Notes: generated by a model from the sequence alone, not told the origin. Shown: positions 226 through 10,116, counted from the first letter of the stretch. The stretch is 28,815 nt of DNA from Deltaproteobacteria bacterium (GCA_019313735.1 JAFDAR010000008.1:1-28815); one strand, 5' to 3'. Made by a program: numbers and translations.

Positions 226-269
226 TGAGACTGACGCAGAAATTGGGCAAAATGGGACGTTATGCAAAG
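226..269 (+). mobile_element. truncated right-end fragment of the 142-bp MITE
   Basis: tgagactgacgcagaaattgggcaaaatgggacgttatgcaaag matches the right end of the copy at 5163-5304 almost exactly. Confidence 0.85.
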
Positions 270-1446: not shown

Positions 1447-1553
1447 CAAGGTACGCGAAATTTTCCACCGCAGTAATACACAGAGTATTTTGAGGATTAA
1501 AAATTGAGCGCAACTCAGAGATTGAGTAGAAGGAAGCCTTTTGTAAAGGTTTC
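1447..1553 (+). mobile_element. diverged, left-truncated relative of the 142-bp MITE
   Basis: caagg..gcgaaatttt..gtattttgaggattaaaaattgag...cagagattg...ttgtaaaggtttc is colinear with the MITE consensus. No left TIR or TSD is recognisable. Confidence 0.7.
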
Positions 1554-2366: not shown

Positions 2367-2398
2367 CCTGCGAGATGTAGGCAGATTCCGGATGGAAG

Positions 2399-2999
2399 CT
2401 AATTTGTTTTCCATTCTTTCAGGGTGTCGTAGAATGGATTTTCCGATGTTTTTCCACCCGCCTCACGGCGCGCAGGCCTGCCGCCGGGGGTTTTCCCCGG
2501 GAACAGTGTCTTTGTCCCGTCTGCCGTGCGGTTCCATCGGATTTGAACGCATGGAAAGCGAGATGCGGTTTCGTTTTATATCAACATCCATCACCGTTGC
2601 CTCGATTCTCTGATTTACCTTTACAATGAGACCTTTGCATAACGTCCCCTTTTGTCCAATTTCTGCGTCAGTCTCAAATTTTAATCCTCAAAATATCTAA
2701 TATATTCCTATGGTTAAAATCTTCGCCTTCCTTGAACTTGAACAAAATTGAACATTCTGCAAAGGTCTCACAATATCATGGGGATTGCGAACAAGCTTGT
2801 CGGCCAGTGCGCTGATATGCACGAGTCCGTCTCGGTGAACCCCGATATCTACAAAGGCGCCGAACGCGGTCACGTTCCTTGCAATGCCGGGCAGTTTTAC
2901 TCCCACCTCCAGATCCGCGATTTTGCTGACGCCCTCAGTGAAGGTAAAAAGTTCAAACTGCTCGCGCGGATCACGGCCGGGCTTCGCGAGTTCCATCAT
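2399..2999 (-). pseudogene. tex: Tex (S1 RNA-binding transcription accessory protein), C-terminal remnant split by a MITE
   Basis: [11 protein letters not shown]...[28 protein letters not shown]...NPHDIV, then MITE, then VKVNQRIEATVMDVDIKRNRISLSMRS. A further frameshift near 2490 precedes the tail ending TAG at 2399-2401. The large N-terminal part is absent. Confidence 0.9.
2628..2769 (-). mobile_element. 142-bp MITE copy A
   Basis: Perfect 12-bp TIR GAGACCTTTGCA/TGCAAAGGTCTC. 5-bp direct repeat ACAAT at 2623-2627 and 2770-2774. Confidence 0.95.
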
Positions 3000-3002
3000 T
3001 AT

Positions 3003-3066
3003 GACTGGATTTCGGTGAAGGCCGGAATGACAGGAAACGGTGTTTTGGGACTTTTTACGAAGCCAT
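3003..3066 (-). repeat. half of a REP/RS3-like intergenic element
   Basis: Minus strand: atggcttcgtaaaaagtcc...gtcattccggccttcaccgaaatccag (hairpin of the GTCATTCCGGC..GCCGGAATCCAG type), truncated where the tex remnant begins. Confidence 0.6.
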
Positions 3067-3071
3067 AATTC

Positions 3072-3722
3072 TTAGCTGAAGGGCATAACATATCTGTACA
3101 TCATCCAGAAATGTGAAAAGGTTCCCATCATGACAAAGACATGGAAGATTTCATGGAACCCGACAATGCGGGGCCAGGGATCGGGTCTCTTAATTGCATA
3201 GATCACAGCGCCTGCGGTATAAAACAGCCCGCCAATGAGCAGCCATGTCACCCCCCCGAGATGAAGGGTTTTTATCAATGGCCATATGGCAACAATGGCC
3301 AGCCACCCTGTACCGATATAGATAAGGGTGTAAAGCCATCGCGGAGCCCCCATCCAGAAAACCTTCATGAGTATGCCGCACGCGGTCAATCCCCATATAA
3401 CTCCGAACAGGCTCCATCCCCAGGCGCCTCTCAAGGGAATAAGACATATAGGTGTATAGGTGGCGGCGATAAGTATAAAGATCATCATGTGATCGATCCT
3501 TCGCAGTCGCTGTGATGCCTCTTCCGAAACGGGCAGCCAGTGATACAGGGTGCTCGCCGTATAGAGCAGGATCATTCCCGCTCCAAAGATGGAGAAGGCT
3601 ACTATGTGCATGGGTTTGACAGGGTGAGTAGAGCCCCATATCAGGAATATCAACCCTGTAATAGCAAGGATAATGCCTATGCAATGTGTAAGTCCACTGA
3701 TCGGATCTTTCAATTTTGTCAT
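3072..3722 (-). CDS. hemolysin III / PAQR family membrane protein
   Basis: THCIG, STLYHW, RRIDHMMIFILIAATYTP and GFHEIFHVFV motifs, about 7 TM segments. Start taken at ATG 3722 after a GAGG RBS (track start 3737). Confidence 0.93.
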   Translation of the reverse strand: MTKLKDPISGLTHCIGIILAITGLIFLIWGSTHPVKPMHIVAFSIFGAGMILLYTASTLYHWLPVSEEASQRLRRIDHMMIFILIAATYTPICLIPLRGAWGWSLFGVIWGLTACGILMKVFWMGAPRWLYTLIYIGTGWLAIVAIWPLIKTLHLGGVTWLLIGGLFYTAGAVIYAIKRPDPWPRIVGFHEIFHVFVMMGTFSHFWMMYRYVMPFS

Positions 3723-3778
3723 GTTACAGCTCCTCACGCGGCTTGCAAAAGCTTCCCATTGGTGGGAGAATAGCGCGC

Positions 3779-4003
3779 TTAAAATGCCGGCAAACTAATG
3801 CGGATCTGCGGGCTGAACCCTGCAATGCCGAAAATTGATACTATTGTACTTTCGGGCATGTTGTCAATTGTAAAAATCAATGGTTCTTCTGTAACACGGA
3901 TCACAGTTTTATGTTCGGCTTTGATGGTTTGATATTTGATAAGGATGGTTCTCCCCATAAAATGCATTAGAATTAGAGGGAAACCTCCAGAAAGCACTTG
4001 CAT
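3779..4003 (-). CDS. possible small hypothetical protein or remnant
   Basis: Open frame of 74 codons with a protein-like tail (KTVIRVTEEPLIFTIDNMPESTIVSIFGIAGFSPQIRISLPAF). No family or good RBS recognised. Confidence 0.25.
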   Translation of the reverse strand: MQVLSGGFPLILMHFMGRTILIKYQTIKAEHKTVIRVTEEPLIFTIDNMPESTIVSIFGIAGFSPQIRISLPAF

Positions 4004-4073
4004 TATGTCCCTATTATTATAAAAGTATCGGAAAATTATAGAATATTTATTCGAACAGGAAAGGAAATAAAGA

Positions 4074-5084
4074 ATGCGGATAACACAGGGGAAATGGTTC
4101 TACATATCGGTTGTGATTATAATCATGGCATTGTTTGCCATACAAGCGTGCAAGAAGAAAGCGGCAAAGCTCCCGGAAGGCACTATAGCGGTAGTCAACG
4201 GAGCAGTGATCACACAGGAAGATCTCGATACGGAGCTGTCCATGGCGCAGCAGCAATTTGCTGATCAGGGTCAGCCAGACGATGAACAGCTCGCGGAGAT
4301 CAAAAAGAATCTCTTCGAGGGTCTTATCGCCCGTAAGGTGCTCTATCAGGAGAGTCAGAAAAAGGGAATAGAAGTGGACGGTGCGACCATCGATAAACGT
4401 CTTGCGAGTATGAAAAAACAATTTCCAAAGGAAGATGATTTCAAAAACATGCTGAAGAAGATGAACCTTACTGAAGATGCCCTGAATGCCCAGTTGCGTG
4501 AAGGAATGGCAATCCAGAAACTCGTAGAACAGGAAGTTATAAGCAATATCGAGATATCGGACAAGAATACGAAGGATTATTACGATGGGCACATGGATCT
4601 CTTCAAGCAACCGGAGAAGATCCGGGCAAGCCATATCCTTGTCAAGGCTGAATCGGGGGCGGATGAGTCCGTTAAAGCCGAAGCCCTTAAGAAGATCAAG
4701 AAGATACAGAAAGAGCTGAAAGCGGGTGGAGATTTTGCTGAACTTGCCAAAAAATATTCGGAATGTCCCAGTAGCGCCAAGGGTGGTGACCTTGGCTACT
4801 TCGGACGAGGACAGATGGTAAAACCCTTTGAAGAGGCGGCTTTCTCCCTGAAACCGGGAGAGATAAGCGATATAACCGAAACCAACTTTGGCTATCATCT
4901 GATAAAAGCCGGGGATAGAAAACCCGAGGTCATAACCGATTACAAGGATATTAAGGAAAGACTTAGCCAATATCTGAAACAGATGAAGACCAAGGAAGAG
5001 GTGGGGAGATATATTGAAAGTCTGAAGGAAAAGGCAAAAATAGAACGATTTCTTCCCGAAGCGAAAAAACCCCGACTCAGCTAA
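4074..5084 (+). CDS. SurA/PrsA-like parvulin peptidyl-prolyl isomerase (lipoprotein)
   Basis: Signal peptide with Cys (IQAC), AVVNG SurA-N domain, parvulin domain ASHILVK...FAELAKKYSECPSSAKGGDLGYF...MVKPFEEAAF...FGYHLIK. Confidence 0.92.
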   Translation: MRITQGKWFYISVVIIIMALFAIQACKKKAAKLPEGTIAVVNGAVITQEDLDTELSMAQQQFADQGQPDDEQLAEIKKNLFEGLIARKVLYQESQKKGIEVDGATIDKRLASMKKQFPKEDDFKNMLKKMNLTEDALNAQLREGMAIQKLVEQEVISNIEISDKNTKDYYDGHMDLFKQPEKIRASHILVKAESGADESVKAEALKKIKKIQKELKAGGDFAELAKKYSECPSSAKGGDLGYFGRGQMVKPFEEAAFSLKPGEISDITETNFGYHLIKAGDRKPEVITDYKDIKERLSQYLKQMKTKEEVGRYIESLKEKAKIERFLPEAKKPRLS

Positions 5085-5162
5085 ATGAATCACGTCACAT
5101 GACCAGCTTATCTGCTGACAGGCGATTTATCCCGGAGTGATTTAATCTCAAGATGATGAAGC

Positions 5163-5304
5163 GAGGCCTTTACAGAATGTTCAATTTTGTTCAAGTTCAA
5201 GGAAGGCGAGAATTTTAACCATAGGCATATATTGGATATTTCGAGGATTAAAATTTGAGACTGACGCAGAAATTGGGCAAAAGGGGACGTTATGCAAAGG
5301 TCTC
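5163..5304 (+). mobile_element. 142-bp MITE copy B
   Basis: 8 mismatches against copy A by manual alignment. 5-bp direct repeat GAAGC at 5158-5162 and 5305-5309. Confidence 0.95.
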
Positions 5305-5340
5305 GAAGCATGCTTGTGTATTTGCCACCATTGTCAAAAT

Positions 5341-5372
5341 AAAAAAGGAGGTTGGTTTCTTATCCAACCTCC
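5341..5372 (-). terminator. Rho-independent terminator of the tRNA transcript
   Basis: Stem ggaggttgg/ccaacctcc with an 8-nt loop, followed on the minus strand by a T6 tract, 13 nt after the tRNA CCA. Confidence 0.8.
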
Positions 5373-5385
5373 CTGATATTATTTA

Positions 5386-5460
5386 TGGTAGTCCCACGGG
5401 GGATTGAACCCCGGTTTCCGGCGTGAGAGGCCAGCGTCCTAACCGCTAGACGATGGGACC
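5386..5460 (-). tRNA. tRNA-Glu(CTC)
   Basis: GGTCCCATCGTCTAGCGGTTAGGACGCTGGCCTCTCACGCCGGAAACCGGGGTTCAATCCCCCGTGGGACTACCA. Full cloverleaf, anticodon loop CT-CTC-AC, encoded CCA. Confidence 0.96.
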
Positions 5461-5461
5461 A

Positions 5462-5530
5462 TGGCTGGGGACAGGAATCGAGCCTGGGCACATATTCCAG
5501 AACCACGAGTCTTATAGATAGACGACCCCA
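5462..5530 (-). pseudogene. degenerate tRNA-Gln(CTG)
   Basis: TGGGG...CCCCAGCCA acceptor ends typical of tRNA-Gln, D-stem GTCT/AGAC, loop TT-CTG-GA, T-arm CCAGG-CTCGATT-CCTGT. Only 69 nt, 5-bp acceptor stem, broken anticodon stem. Lies 1 nt upstream of tRNA-Glu. Confidence 0.75.
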
Positions 5531-5558
5531 CAGTGAAAATCGCCTTGAACTGGCGGTA

Positions 5559-5585
5559 ATTAGACAAATAACACTGAAAAGTCAA
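5559..5585 (-). promoter_or_regulatory. possible sigma70 promoter of the tRNA pair
   Basis: TTGACT ... TCTAAT on the minus strand about 30 nt upstream of the tRNA-Gln remnant. Spacing (15 nt) is suboptimal. Confidence 0.35.
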
Positions 5586-5724
5586 GACTTATTTAGCGGT
5601 TGTTCCTTATACTTCAATATCTGGAAGGTTTGATGTGTGATTTCAACCAAGAAACAATTATTTGCGGGGGGGGCGCTTTGTATTTTGCATCATTACCTCT
5701 TACTCGAAGAATTGTAGAATTTTC

Positions 5725-5754
5725 TTGACATTAGATCAAATTTGTAATTATGTT
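5725..5754 (+). promoter_or_regulatory. sigma70-type promoter of the yceD-rpmF-fab operon
   Basis: TTGACA-N18-TATGTT, ending 38 nt before the yceD start. Confidence 0.55.
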
Positions 5755-5792
5755 GCATTCTTTTTTTAGGCATATCTTTAACAGGACAGGCT

Positions 5793-6335
5793 TTGCAGAT
5801 CAACATCTCAAATATTCCGGAAGAGGGGTTGAATCTCCGGTTCTCTAAAAGTGGAAAATGGTTCCACCGGTTACTGCCGATGAATGCTGATTCTGGTTTT
5901 TGCGTGCGGAACATTGACATGCAATGTTTTGTTGAAAAGGTCTTGAAAAATGTGTCGATCAATGGCAGAATCGCCGCCGGAGTTGAACTTGAGTGCTGCA
6001 GATGTCTGGAAAAATTTGACTTTCCCGTGGAGATTGAATTCAAATACGTTCTCATGCCCGCTGATAATCTGAAGAAAGACGAACTGGAACTGACATATAA
6101 AGACCTGGAATGCAGTTATTATGAAGGTGATATAATCGATCTGGGTCAGATTGTAGTCGAACAGATTGTCCTGCAGGTTCCGGTTAAACCCCTTTGCAAT
6201 GTTTCCTGTAAGGGGCTTTGTCCCGTCTGCGGGATAAACCTTAATATAGAGGAGTGTAATCACGAAACGCAGCAGATAAGCAGTCCATTTGCTGCGTTAA
6301 AAAATTTTAAGACAAAAAAGAAAGGTAGTTGTACT
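5793..6335 (+). CDS. yceD: YceD/DUF177 family protein, no stop codon, reads in frame into rpmF
   Basis: TTG start. ECCRCLEKF, IDLGQIVVEQIVLQVPVKPLCNVSCKGLCPVCGINLN..C and SPFAALK motifs. The ORF continues to 6512. Confidence 0.88.
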
Positions 6336-6512
6336 ATGGCGAATCCAACCAATAGACATTCGAGAACAAGGAGAAATAAGAGAAGGACTCACGATACCCT
6401 TAAAGCTGTCACTACCTCCGTATGCTCACAATGCAGTGAACCAAAGCTGCCCCACCGCGCATGTCCCCATTGTGGTTTCTACAAAGGGCGTGAAGTTATT
6501 TCCGTTGAATAG
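6336..6512 (+). CDS. rpmF: 50S ribosomal protein L32 (Zn-ribbon form)
   Basis: MANPTNRHSRTRRNKRRTH...CSQC.EPKLPHRACPHCGFYKGREV. Own ATG at 6336. Confidence 0.95.
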   Translation: MANPTNRHSRTRRNKRRTHDTLKAVTTSVCSQCSEPKLPHRACPHCGFYKGREVISVE

Positions 6513-6548
6513 ATTTTCCCGGAGTATGTGTTCTAAGGGCGAAGAATT

Positions 6549-7502
6549 ATGGATAACTTAGGCATAGTCTTTCCCGGTCAGGGTTCACAATACGTTGGAA
6601 TGGGAAGGGAACTGTACGAAGGATTTAAAGAAACAAGGGAAATCTTTGCGGAAGCGGAGGAAGCTCTCAACACCGACCTCGCGAAACTTTGCTTTGAAGG
6701 GCCGCAGGATGTCCTCGATCTGACGCCAAACACTCAAACGGCAGTATTGACAGTGGGCGTTGCTTTCTACAGGGTATTTGAAAAGGAAATAGGCATAGAG
6801 CCGGAGGCCATGGCGGGACACAGCCTGGGAGAATATGCCGCTCTCTGTGCCTCAGGGGCCATCGATTTTTCCGATGCCGTTAAACTTGTATATGCAAGGG
6901 GACGATACCAGCAGGAAGCGGTGCCTCAGGGCAAAGGCTGCATGGCTGCTATTATTGGCCTTGACAGGGGATCTGTTGAAGAAATATGCCAGAATGCGGA
7001 CAAAGCCCATGGAGTGGTCGCGTTGGCGAATATCAACAGCCCGGGTCAGTTTGTTATCTCCGGTAACACTGCAGCAGTTGAAAAAGCCATAGTGTTGGCA
7101 AAGGGGAAAGGCGCCCGGATGGGTGTCAAACTCCCCATAAGTGTTCCCTGCCACTGCAACCTCCTGGACGAAGCGGCAGAAAAACTGGAAAAAGATCTTG
7201 ACCGTGTCTCAATAAGGAACTGCAGGGTAAAGGTAATACCGAACTTTGATCCGGAAGCTCTGCATTCAATAGACACTACCAGAAAACTCCTGGCAAGGCA
7301 GTTGAATTCCCCCGTAAGATGGCAGGAAACTGTAGAACGGATGTACAAAATGGGGATAACGACTGTGGTCGAGATAGGGCCGAAAAGGACTTTGTCAAGT
7401 CTCATAAAGAGGATAGACAGGCGTATTAAAACCCTTAATATAGAGGATATCGCCTCTCTGAAAGCAACAATGGATTTCTTTAACGGTGACGAGGCGGCAT
7501 AG
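6549..7502 (+). CDS. fabD: malonyl-CoA:ACP transacylase
   Basis: FPGQGSQYVGMG, catalytic GHSLGEY, ANINSPGQFVISG, SVPCHC, VRWQE, EIGP. Confidence 0.96.
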   Translation: MDNLGIVFPGQGSQYVGMGRELYEGFKETREIFAEAEEALNTDLAKLCFEGPQDVLDLTPNTQTAVLTVGVAFYRVFEKEIGIEPEAMAGHSLGEYAALCASGAIDFSDAVKLVYARGRYQQEAVPQGKGCMAAIIGLDRGSVEEICQNADKAHGVVALANINSPGQFVISGNTAAVEKAIVLAKGKGARMGVKLPISVPCHCNLLDEAAEKLEKDLDRVSIRNCRVKVIPNFDPEALHSIDTTRKLLARQLNSPVRWQETVERMYKMGITTVVEIGPKRTLSSLIKRIDRRIKTLNIEDIASLKATMDFFNGDEAA

Positions 7503-7523
7503 ACTCATGTTTTTTCGTGTCAG

Positions 7524-7539
7524 TCCCGACGAGTCGGGA
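7524..7539. repeat. TCCCGAC-NN-GTCGGGA mini-hairpin
   Basis: tcccgac-ga-gtcggga, 21 nt after the fabD stop. Family also at 8394, 18816, 19719 and 26401. Confidence 0.7.
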
Positions 7540-7633
7540 TTACGGAGTGTTTAGCCTGTGATTTTGTCGCTCTGGGAGGAAAATACCGGCAGGGCGTGCA
7601 AACGAAATCATTCTTGAAAAAAATAAGGTATAT

Positions 7634-8395
7634 ATGAAAATGTCAGGCGGAAAACCTCTGGATGGGAAAATAGCGCTGGTAACGGGTAGTTCGAGGGGGA
7701 TTGGAAGAGCCATTGCGGTGGAGCTTGCCCGCGCGGGGGCTTTTATCTTCATAAACTATGTCAGAGGTGAAGAGGCGGCCCGCAAGACGCTGAAGATTAT
7801 GGAGGACCGGGGGGACAAGGGAAGTCTGCTGAGTTTTAACGTGTCGGATTTCGATGCCGTTCAGGATGCCATAAGGGGCATAACGGAAGAAAAAGGCAGA
7901 ATCGACATCCTGATAAATAATGCCGGTATAACTTTAGATGGTATATTTGTAAGGACAAAGCCTGAAGAGTGGGACAATGTCATAGACATAAACCTCAAAG
8001 GGGTTTTTAATTGCTGCCGAGCCGCAACCAGATACATGATGAAACAGAGATGGGGGCGGATCGTAAATATGACCTCGGTAGTAGCCCTGTCCGGGAATGC
8101 CGGACAGGTGTGCTATTCCGCATCCAAAGCGGGGATTGTGGGATTGACGAAGTCCCTGGCCAGGGAACTGGGTTCAAGGAATATATGTATCAATGCCGTC
8201 GCGCCGGGATTCATTGAAACCGATATGACGGTGTCCATTGGGGAGAAGAGCAGGGAAAAGGTAATAGACCAGATACCGCTGGGAAGAACGGGCACGCCGG
8301 ATGACGTTGCCGGTGTTGTGGCATTCCTGGTTTCCGGGAAGGCCGATTATATCACCGGGCAGGTGATACACGTCAATGGTGGACTTTACATGTAG
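7634..8395 (+). CDS. fabG: 3-oxoacyl-ACP reductase
   Basis: TGSSRGIG, INNAGIT.D, YSASKAG, NAVAPGFIETDM, ITGQVIHVNGG. Confidence 0.96.
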   Translation: MKMSGGKPLDGKIALVTGSSRGIGRAIAVELARAGAFIFINYVRGEEAARKTLKIMEDRGDKGSLLSFNVSDFDAVQDAIRGITEEKGRIDILINNAGITLDGIFVRTKPEEWDNVIDINLKGVFNCCRAATRYMMKQRWGRIVNMTSVVALSGNAGQVCYSASKAGIVGLTKSLARELGSRNICINAVAPGFIETDMTVSIGEKSREKVIDQIPLGRTGTPDDVAGVVAFLVSGKADYITGQVIHVNGGLYM

Positions 8396-8413
8396 TCCCG
8401 ACTTGTCGGGACT
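8394..8413. repeat. TCCCGAC-NN-GTCGGGA mini-hairpin
   Basis: agtcccgac-tt-gtcgggact overlapping the fabG TAG. Confidence 0.75.
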
Positions 8414-8468
8414 GTTTTGAGATAAGTATTGTGACATGTACTTTGAAATACAATTAGGAGGAAGCTAA

Positions 8469-8714
8469 ATGACAGTTAATGTCGATGAAAAGGTAAAAGA
8501 GGTTATTATTGAACAGTTGAACATAACAGAGGAAGAATGTGTGCCCGATGCCTCATTTATAGATGATCTTGGGGCCGACTCCCTCGACATAGTTGAACTG
8601 ATTATGGCTATGGAGGATAATTTCAGCATAGATATATCGGATGACGATCTGATGAAGATACGCACAGTCCAGGATATTGTTGATTATATAAAGGAAAGAA
8701 TGTCACAGTCATGA
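8469..8714 (+). CDS. acpP: acyl carrier protein
   Basis: [27 protein letters not shown] phosphopantetheine motif. Confidence 0.97.
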
Positions 8715-9958
8715 TGTCAAGAAGACGGGTTGTGATAACAGGGCTTGGTATTGTAAGCCCCCTGGGTAATTGCCTGGAAGATGCATGGAAGGGGATATGC
8801 TCCGGGAGGTCCGGTATTGCGGAGATTACCAGGTTCGACACAACCGGATTCAAGACAAAAATAGCGGGTGAATTAAAGAATTTTGATCCCCTGACCTTTG
8901 TAGATTCCAAGGAGCGCCGCAGGCTGGATGATTTCATCATCTATGCCCTGGCGGCTTCAGAGATGGCGTTGAACGATTCCGGTCTGGTGATAGATGACAG
9001 AAATGCAGAGAAGGTGGGTGTTATATTGGGTTCAGCGATAGGGGGCCTGTCCACCATGGAGAAGGAAAAGGAGACCATCCTCAACCTGGGACCGAAAAAA
9101 ATGTCCCCTTTTGCGATTCCGGCGGTATTGGCAAACCTTGCTCCGGGGCATGTATCTATACGATTTGGCGCCAAGGGTCCCATAAGTTGTGTCGTGACGG
9201 CGTGCGCCTCGGGCAATAATGCCATCAGCGACGCTTTCAGAACCATAGCCTGCGGTTACGCTGACGCCATGATAGCGGGTGGTACGGAGGCGGCCGTCAC
9301 CCCTCTTACAATAGCAGGATTCAACGCCATGAGGGCGATATCAACCAGAAACGAGGAACCGGAAAGGGCGAGCAGGCCATTCGACAGAGACAGGGATGGA
9401 TTTATCGTAAGTGAGGGATGTGGCATATTAATCCTTGAAGAGTTGTCCCATGCCCTTGAAAGGGGTGCCAGGATACATGCCGAGATTGCCGGAACAGGGT
9501 CAACCAGTGATGCCTTTCACATGGCGGCCCCGCCCCCTGGGCATGCGGGAGCAGTCAGATGTATGCGGCTTGCCCTGCAGGACGCCGGGATGGAACCCAC
9601 AGATATCGATTACATAAATGCGCATGGCACATCGACGCCTCTCAACGACATATATGAGACGGACGCGATAAAAAAGGTCTTTGGCGGATACAGCGGGAAA
9701 CTTGCCGTCAGCTCGACAAAGTCCATGACAGGTCATATGCTGGGCGCCGCGGGTGGTGTTGAGGCCATCTTTTCTGTCAAGGCTATACAGGAGGGGATTG
9801 TACCCCCGACGATAAATCTGGACAATCCGGATCCGGAATGTGACCTGAATTATACACCACACACGGCGCAACGCAGGAAAATCAGGGCTGCCATGTCGAA
9901 CACTTTTGGATTTGGCGGCGTAAATTCGGTTGTTGTGTTTAAGAAATTTGAAGGTTAA
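8711..9958 (+). CDS. fabF: beta-ketoacyl-ACP synthase II
   Basis: RRVVITGLG, catalytic [35 protein letters not shown]. Confidence 0.96.
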
Positions 9959-10100
9959 AAGACCTTTGCACAATGTTCAATTTCGTTCAAGTTCAAGGAA
10001 GACGACAATTTTAATCGTAGGGATACATTAAGTATTTCGAAAATTAAAATTTGAGTCTGACACCGAAATTGGGCGAAAGGGGACGTTGTGCAAAGATCTC
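9959..10100 (+). mobile_element. 142-bp MITE copy C
   Basis: About 22 mismatches against copy A by manual alignment, no indels. 5-bp direct repeat GTTAA at 9954-9958 (contains the fabF stop) and 10101-10105. Confidence 0.93.
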
Positions 10101-10116
10101 GTTAAGGGGACTCATC

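Follow-up and report, generated by a model that had tools for sequence, protein, structure and literature searches.

The stretch of DNA considered here, 28,815 bp attributed to a Deltaproteobacteria bacterium (GCA_019313735.1, JAFDAR010000008.1:1-28815; 'the window' in the following), carries three complete copies of a 142-bp repeat which, judging from sequence comparisons, very probably form a family of MITEs (miniature transposable elements with inverted repeats) mobilised in trans by an ISPg1/ISNme1-like clade of the IS5 family. The copies are real insertions, each accompanied by a 5-bp duplication, and the same ends, again with 5-bp duplications, are found on intact IS5-family elements of the same bacterial order. 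Our inference is that the copies owe their movement to the IS5-type clade and not to some other enzyme, and that the lineage contained this clade at the time. The host probably belongs to the Syntrophales, family Smithellaceae, and the window is contig C289 of its assembly (G000; 1.76 Mb in 335 contigs, 87% complete, 6% contamination), which was built from a metagenome and is fragmented. A preliminary description of the window had proposed a non-autonomous element moved in trans by a DDE transposase with low target specificity, a proposal to which the present comparisons lend support.

Copy A (2628-2769, minus strand) sits in the remnant of a Tex-like gene, at its S1-domain end; copy B (5163-5304, plus strand) is intergenic, 84 bp from a tRNA gene (5389-5460, minus strand); and copy C (9959-10100, plus strand), the most diverged of the three, lies between fabF (8711-9958) and rpiB. 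Each is 142 bp long and framed by its own exact 5-bp duplication, namely ACAAT for copy A (2623-2627 and 2770-2774), GAAGC for copy B (5158-5162 and 5305-5309) and GTTAA for copy C (9954-9958, which includes the fabF stop codon TAA, and 10101-10105). Coordinates, strands and duplications agree exactly with those of the preliminary description at all three places, and its hand counts of the differences between copies (8 for A and B, about 22 for A and C) correspond to computed values of 8 and 22, with 22 also for B and C. The two further partial copies that it had listed are both real: a truncated fragment at 226-269 (plus strand), 98% identical to element positions 94-137, from which both tips are gone, and an old, decayed copy at 1447-1553 (plus strand), 71% identical over element positions 36-142 and closing with a degenerate right tip, ...TTTGTAAAGGTTTC. 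The terminal inverted repeat of the MITE extends over 37 nt with 81% complementarity according to the repeat finder and is nearly perfect in its outer 12 nt, GAGACCTTTGCA, which at one end are prolonged to GAGACCTTTGCATAAC. The internal dyad symmetry noticed earlier belongs to a larger structure, the whole element folding as one imperfect full-length hairpin (z-score of -3.1 as DNA and -6.3 as RNA). The lack of coding capacity also holds, there being no gene inside the element and the sole open reading frames (ORFs) listed as overlapping the copies being ones that continue into flanking DNA.

The three insertion sites were compared with those of 13 related species of the same genus (G-numbered genomes). 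The fabF-rpiB junction, where copy C resides, is without the element in all 13 species, and in 5 of the 13 it reads ...GAAGGTTAAGGG... with a single GTTAA. The site of copy A is empty in at least six species (G009, G013, G005, G010, G012 and G002), the relatives having one 5-mer (ACGAC, diverged) within an uninterrupted Tex S1-domain reading frame, and that of copy B is empty in at least five (G009, G013, G005, G001 and G008), with GAAGC present once in G009. Doubled 5-mers at empty orthologous sites, the pattern that the preliminary description held to be incompatible with its proposal, were looked for, and each 5-mer position turned out to be single in the relatives. Since the orthologous sites are empty and hold a single 5-mer, copies A, B and C are insertions later than the split from the sampled relatives, and the 5-bp repeats are true target-site duplications. 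When the element and one 5-mer are excised from the Tex-like gene, ...NPHDIV is fused to KVNQRIEATVMDVD... in frame on the minus strand. The Tex-like gene itself (2386-3071, minus strand) is a 3′ remnant, about 1.8 kb of the 5′ part present in G009 being missing here, and with such a loss it may have been dead before copy A was inserted. Copy C landed exactly at the fabF stop; as TAA belongs to the duplicated GTTAA, fabF retains its stop codon, while the distance from fabF to rpiB, a few bases beforehand, becomes about 150 bp.

The same behaviour is seen across the assembly, where a BLAST search with the 142-bp element, as the preliminary description had advised, gave 65 loci, about 30 of them full length. 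The duplication is exactly 5 bp in 17 of the 30 full copies and has one mismatch in 6 more, against a chance expectation of about 1 in 1024 per copy; duplications of 4, 6 or 8 bp occur in 3 of the 30, a small correction to the statement that the element makes 5-bp duplications, which is true of all three copies in the window. No clear consensus emerged from a target-site logo of 16 exact sites in G000, and the weak target preference suggested at the outset is thus maintained. The 12-mer end occurs 41 times in G000, compared with no occurrence of the reversed control. Copies are found in either orientation and in gene remnants as well as between genes, and some fall within long open frames once the empty site is reconstructed. 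Several are located about 110 bp from contig ends, which, together with the fragmentation (335 contigs) and 6% contamination of the metagenome assembly, would be in keeping with repeats that are not mobile at all and represent artefacts of assembly or binning, or segmental duplicates with similar flanks. The probability of this explanation is negligible: it is refuted by clean empty sites in up to 13 independent assemblies, the window copies are internal to a 28.8-kb contig, between unique flanks, and have each their own exact 5-bp duplication, and the element family is present in many independent assemblies. As for sequencing runs, the share of the sampled words from the copy C region does not exceed 9% in any of them.

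The lead to the partner insertion sequence (IS) came from a decayed element in G094:C229, in which a left tip is followed by a broken gene matching DUF772, DDE_Tnp_1 and NF033581, the latter being the NCBIfam model of the IS5 family (cut-off 140 bits). A search with NF033581 across the order brought out many intact genes of 352-389 aa inside elements of 1.37-1.5 kb, with GAGACCTTTGCA[C/T]AAC as the left end, which lies upstream of the gene, and GAGACCTTTGAA or GAGACCTTTGCA as the right end. Exact 5-bp duplications flank 6 of the 13 full elements of a first set. A scan of one genome per species then yielded 79 further IS5-type loci, distributed over Syntrophales, Smithella, Smithellaceae, Syntrophaceae, Desulfobacterales, Desulfosarcina alkanivorans and strain NaphS2; for 62 of them the sequence allowed the two ends and the flanks to be determined, and exact 5-bp duplications are present in 22. 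The assignment of the transposases to the IS5 family is illustrated by that of locus L112, which scores 177.6 bits with NF033581 and also matches Pfam PF05598 (DUF772) and PF01609 (DDE_Tnp_1). In an alignment of 11 transposases D150, D257 and E307, which would be candidates for the catalytic DDE residues, are among the invariant columns. The two ends of the MITE are not equivalent, one being left-end-like and the other right-end-like of the IS: the IRL-like (left) end equals the IS left ends at 16 of 16 nt in many elements, and the IRR-like (right) end is 83% identical over 36 nt to the right end of the element of G229, a genome assigned to the same family as the window. The repeat thus unites the features by which MITEs are recognized, i.e. 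a small non-coding sequence, terminal inverted repeats, a duplication fixed at 5 bp, dispersed copies with presence/absence variation and the ends of an autonomous, transposase-encoding element.

These results modify the earlier picture of the partner in several respects. The ends had been likened to those of IS5/IS1182; for IS5 this is borne out by the presence of the same 12-16 nt ends on full IS5-family elements of the order. The 5-bp duplication had been regarded as being at odds with IS5, a conflict that disappears because this IS5 clade itself makes 5-bp duplications. The IS5 subgroup as usually tabulated consists of elements of about 1.0-1.5 kb, with ends starting GA/G and a 4-bp duplication; the partner elements are alike in size, in their GAG... 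ends and in the combination of DUF772 and DDE_Tnp_1, and differ in duplicating 5 bp instead of 4. Finally, the partner, formerly without a name, can now be named at the level of the clade: a transposase gene bounded by the same ends, which the preliminary description had suggested looking for, exists in the same order, but none was found in assembly G000 or in the 13 related species.

Several candidates were discarded on the way. DDE transposase loci L028-L045, from a PF01609/PF13701 search of G000 and four related species, are without GAGACC ends, and so are two genes among them, an IS1380-like one of 528 aa on C50 and an IS1182-like one of 560 aa on C73. The solo GAGACC tips in genomes of the genus are mostly chance 12-mers or other MITE variants. 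Tip pairs 3.5-4 kb apart in G094 and G121 do not delimit single elements, as G094:C229 contains the decayed IS5 copy and G121:C62 ordinary genes, and the best NF033581 matches (L084, L094, L096 and L097) represent a different IS5 group lacking these ends. When the IS of L112 was compared with a plasmid collection, no match was obtained. The decayed IS5-type element of G094:C229 (L072:709-978, minus strand) is itself interrupted by an insert of about 400 bp with a small ORF, by eye a putative GIY-YIG nuclease.

A number of observations weigh against mobilisation by the IS5-type clade. None of the 62+13 full elements resembles the MITE beyond 16-36 nt, and a direct parent element was not found among them. 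A tblastn search with 13 such transposases against assembly G000 gave no match at E below 1e-3, and the partner transposase gene was found neither in the 13 related species nor in the genomes with the highest copy number, G051 and G069; in G000 no tip pair is present at insertion-sequence distance. Furthermore, the 5-bp duplication is imperfect or missing in 13 of the 30 full copies (there is one mismatch in 6, and 3 show the other lengths given above). With the exception of G011, the genomes without a partner match are all fragmented metagenome assemblies, which often lose multi-copy insertion sequences, so that the partner is to be considered not found there rather than shown to be absent. 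The lack of similarity past 16-36 nt means that the inside of the MITE is not derived from any sampled IS, and in this sense the element is a 'type II' MITE.

A 5-bp duplication is also the hallmark of Tn3-family transposition, and this, with the failure to find an IS5-type partner in G000, is what favours mobilisation by some other 5-bp-duplicating family, e.g. by a Tn3-family enzyme, the match to IS5 ends being a coincidence. Tn3-type elements are, however, bounded by repeats of about 38 bp starting with GGGG, whereas the MITE tips are of the IS5 type and start with GAGACC. Moreover, dozens of intact elements have IS5-family ends that the tips match at 12-16 of 16 nt, and these elements themselves make 5-bp duplications, and this end type has been published as IS5-family (PMC4596501), all of which leaves such a coincidence very improbable. 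The resemblance of the MITE to the Tn3-derived miniature elements (TIMEs) described in PMC4133298 is limited to their being non-autonomous, moved in trans and flanked by 5-bp duplications.

In the mechanism envisaged for the IS5-type clade, an IS5-family transposase encoded by a full element would be supplied in trans and would bind both tips of the MITE, which would be cut out or copied and then inserted, with loose target choice, at a staggered 5-bp cut, the repair of which would generate the 5-bp duplication.

Neither the end type nor the kind of element is new; the host group is. Klein et al. (2015; PMC4596501) list in their Table 2 the end of ISNme1, an IS5-family element of Neisseria meningitidis, as GAGACCTTTGCAAAA, the ends of ISPg1, an IS5-family element of Porphyromonas gingivalis, as GAGACCATTGCA (left) and TTCAAAGGTCTC (right), and those of the P. 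gingivalis BrickBuilt copies as GAGACCTTTGCA. ISNme1 and ISPg1, and the MITEs ATR, BrickBuilt and MITEPgRS, are alike to the present family in their end type, the ISNme1 end being the same as here and that of ISPg1 near-identical. The ISPg1 transposase, also of the IS5 family, has 361 aa (PMC9328147), to be compared with 352-389 aa in the elements found here. ISNme1 is the proposed parent of ATR, a Neisseria MITE of type II, i.e. with an inside unrelated to that of the parent (PMC4596501), as is the case for the 142-bp element. The hosts are different, ISPg1 and ISNme1 belonging to Bacteroidota or Neisseria and the present elements to a Syntrophales bacterium (Thermodesulfobacteriota). BrickBuilt elements differ in having a leader/minisatellite/tail layout instead of a 142-bp full-length hairpin, and in their reported flanks of 2, 4 and 5 nt where the element described here consistently has 5 bp. 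IS1126, which is the same as ISPg1, has been described as making 5-bp duplications, which would fit.

In the order-wide sample of 251 genomes, the same 142-bp element was detected in 25, belonging to five taxonomic families. For copies in genomes of other families (G051, G085, G069 and G108), identity with copy B is 94-96%, and with the consensus it reaches 98%. Such values point away from vertical descent and towards horizontal movement or bursts arising from a conserved master copy. Scattered genomes of the sample contain the exact 12-mer end far in excess of the reversed control (up to 134 per genome versus 0-2), and what lies between the tips varies by lineage. In G057 (L074-L083), from another family of the order, the same tips enclose a GC-rich palindromic element of about 350 bp, present in about 50 copies, which breaks many contigs 40-170 bp from their ends. 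At the other extreme, tip-to-tip palindromes of 20-37 bp were observed, made of two GAGACCTTTGCA tips with almost nothing in between (G121:C243:5179-5198; G051:C14:16750-16778; G051:C6:3357-3393; G000:C97:742-780); these minimal palindromes may represent the smallest units that can be mobilised, or sites at which new bodies are taken up.

Taken alone, the 142-bp element is an ordinary, clean bacterial MITE, and it is the hairpin body shared among elements with different ends that deserves the attention of specialists. A hidden Markov model (HMM) of element positions 23-120 identified 62 loci in assembly G000, of which about 33 have GAGACC tips (fam1); the same hairpin body, of about 110 bp and some 75-80% identical, also lies between three other classes of tips. 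In fam2 the tip is GATTCTGTTGATT[T/A]ATG and the 11 copies have a 6-bp duplication of the form ATNNAT; fam3, with tip GTGTCCATCCAGAAATG, has two copies, also with a 6-bp duplication; and the four copies of fam4, with tip GGAGGCTGTCCGAGAAT, show no clear duplication. At both ends, homology of the body starts right inside the outer 12-17 nt, beside a short shared AGAATG-like motif. Two of these tip classes have insertion-sequence partners of their own: those of fam3 bound an element of 1679 bp in G010, of the same genus, which is flanked by the 6-bp duplication CAACTA and encodes a 457-aa protein scoring 425 bits with the ISNCY model NF033593 (cut-off 325), and those of fam4 bound an IS1182-family element of 1852 bp (404 bits with NF033551, cut-off 270). 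For fam2 a partner was not found, only MITE-sized tip pairs being present, in 10 of 13 genomes of the genus; the 575-aa IS1182-like gene L090 of G094 was considered and set aside as a weak match. Empty sites are again available: at one fam2 site the element is present in G000, G013 and G010, whereas G012 and G005 lack it and have a single 6-mer, and a fam3 site of G000 is empty in G010 and G009. Three of the four tip classes are thus mobile. At G000:C63:9119-9456 (L219:501-838) a fam3 element and a GAGACC-tip element occur 55 bp apart; G010 and G009 have neither of them at the corresponding position, a pattern suggestive of a local hot spot for insertion.

A comparison of 17 elements from the four tip classes reveals compensatory double changes that keep the pairing at 15 of 36 stem pairs, including three consecutive UA-to-AU swaps. 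Such a pattern, along with the strong z-scores of the full-length fold and the conservation of the body across families that differ in their tips, raises the question of whether the element is mainly a functional hairpin, i.e. a structured RNA or DNA cruciform acting as a terminator, mRNA stabiliser or small-RNA precursor, roles that have been suggested for ERIC or Correia elements, which spread by virtue of a function for the host and in which the inverted tips would form the base of the stem and nothing more. This is unlikely, given that the tips are insertion-sequence ends and the duplications show transposition, that copies lie in either orientation and within gene remnants as well as intergenic, and that all three sites of the window are empty in relatives, none of them being a conserved regulatory site. 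Nor do known RNA families speak in its favour: the sole Rfam match in the window above the gathering score is the tRNA, and the element itself gives weak miRNA-precursor-like matches of 16-22 bits, where the thresholds are 90-140. In a DNA palindrome, compensatory changes are no proof that the RNA has a role, as arm-to-arm repair, or selection for a DNA hairpin that aids transposition, would give the same pattern. A function may nevertheless have been added on top of mobility.

Further signs that bodies and tips are exchanged come from individual copies. The L208 element (G133:C158:3847-3988) has GAGACC tips and fam2-like bases at several covarying positions of the body, and appears to be a mosaic, or recombinant, of two body lineages. 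A second type of body, with core GTCATTTCGA...CGAAATGAC, is found under GAGACC tips in some genomes and under fam3-like GTGTCAATCAAGAAATG tips in G000 (L013:3098-3218 in G012:C281; G000:C98:1795-1960; G000:C121:3871-4030; L211 in G093), the L013 element being a 121-bp MITE with the same GAGACC tips and a different inside. With a second body under two tip classes, the shuffling of bodies and tips is not limited to one body. A different kind of association involves a perfect palindrome of 24 bp, GGGGACAGGTTTAAACCTGTCCCC, followed by ACTGGTACA, which adjoins half-copies of the MITE (G000:C162:2288-2500; G000:C54:9282-9400; G000:C304:1880-2037) and is itself followed by a repeat of about 125 bp in two cases; the MITE is cut near the middle each time, and this looks like another family inserting into, or recombining with, MITE centres.

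Taken together, these data suggest that bacterial MITEs can be modular. It is conceivable, albeit on balance somewhat doubtful, that the unit that spreads is the hairpin body of about 110 bp, which would gain new tips time and again, rely for its movement on any transposase at hand and pass horizontally between families. Such a hairpin cassette may favour transposition, e.g. by bringing the two tips together, or benefit the host, and the exchange of tips may run via template switching at the AGAATG-like motif during gap repair. Literature searches for a hairpin body reused under different tips turned up no bacterial report. A parallel is offered by the CMITEs of Acropora corals (Wang et al. 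2010; PMC2872659), in which the inside is more conserved than the tips, the same pattern as that of the hairpin body across the four tip classes; those elements differ in being eukaryotic and linked to piggyBac, while the tips described here are tied to IS5, ISNCY and IS1182, and in their duplication lengths. Repeats of the ERIC and Correia type are, like the present element, small, palindromic and dispersed, and they can be transcribed as hairpins; for the present element, unlike there, a partner IS clade, duplications and empty sites are documented.

For genome annotation, many of the repeats in Syntrophales/Smithella-type assemblies, and many of the places where contigs break, are accounted for in large part by the results given here, which also draw attention to false N-terminal extensions and split genes, as exemplified by the Tex remnant. 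With respect to the classification of insertion sequences, the results provide documentation of an IS5 clade, ISPg1/ISNme1-like, whose duplications are of 5 bp instead of 4 bp and which is widespread in syntrophic and sulfate-reducing Thermodesulfobacteriota. If it is true that a hairpin body is reused under the ends of unrelated insertion sequences, the part of a MITE that is not its tips would be under selection and the tips themselves would be exchangeable, which would bear on the question of how MITEs originate.

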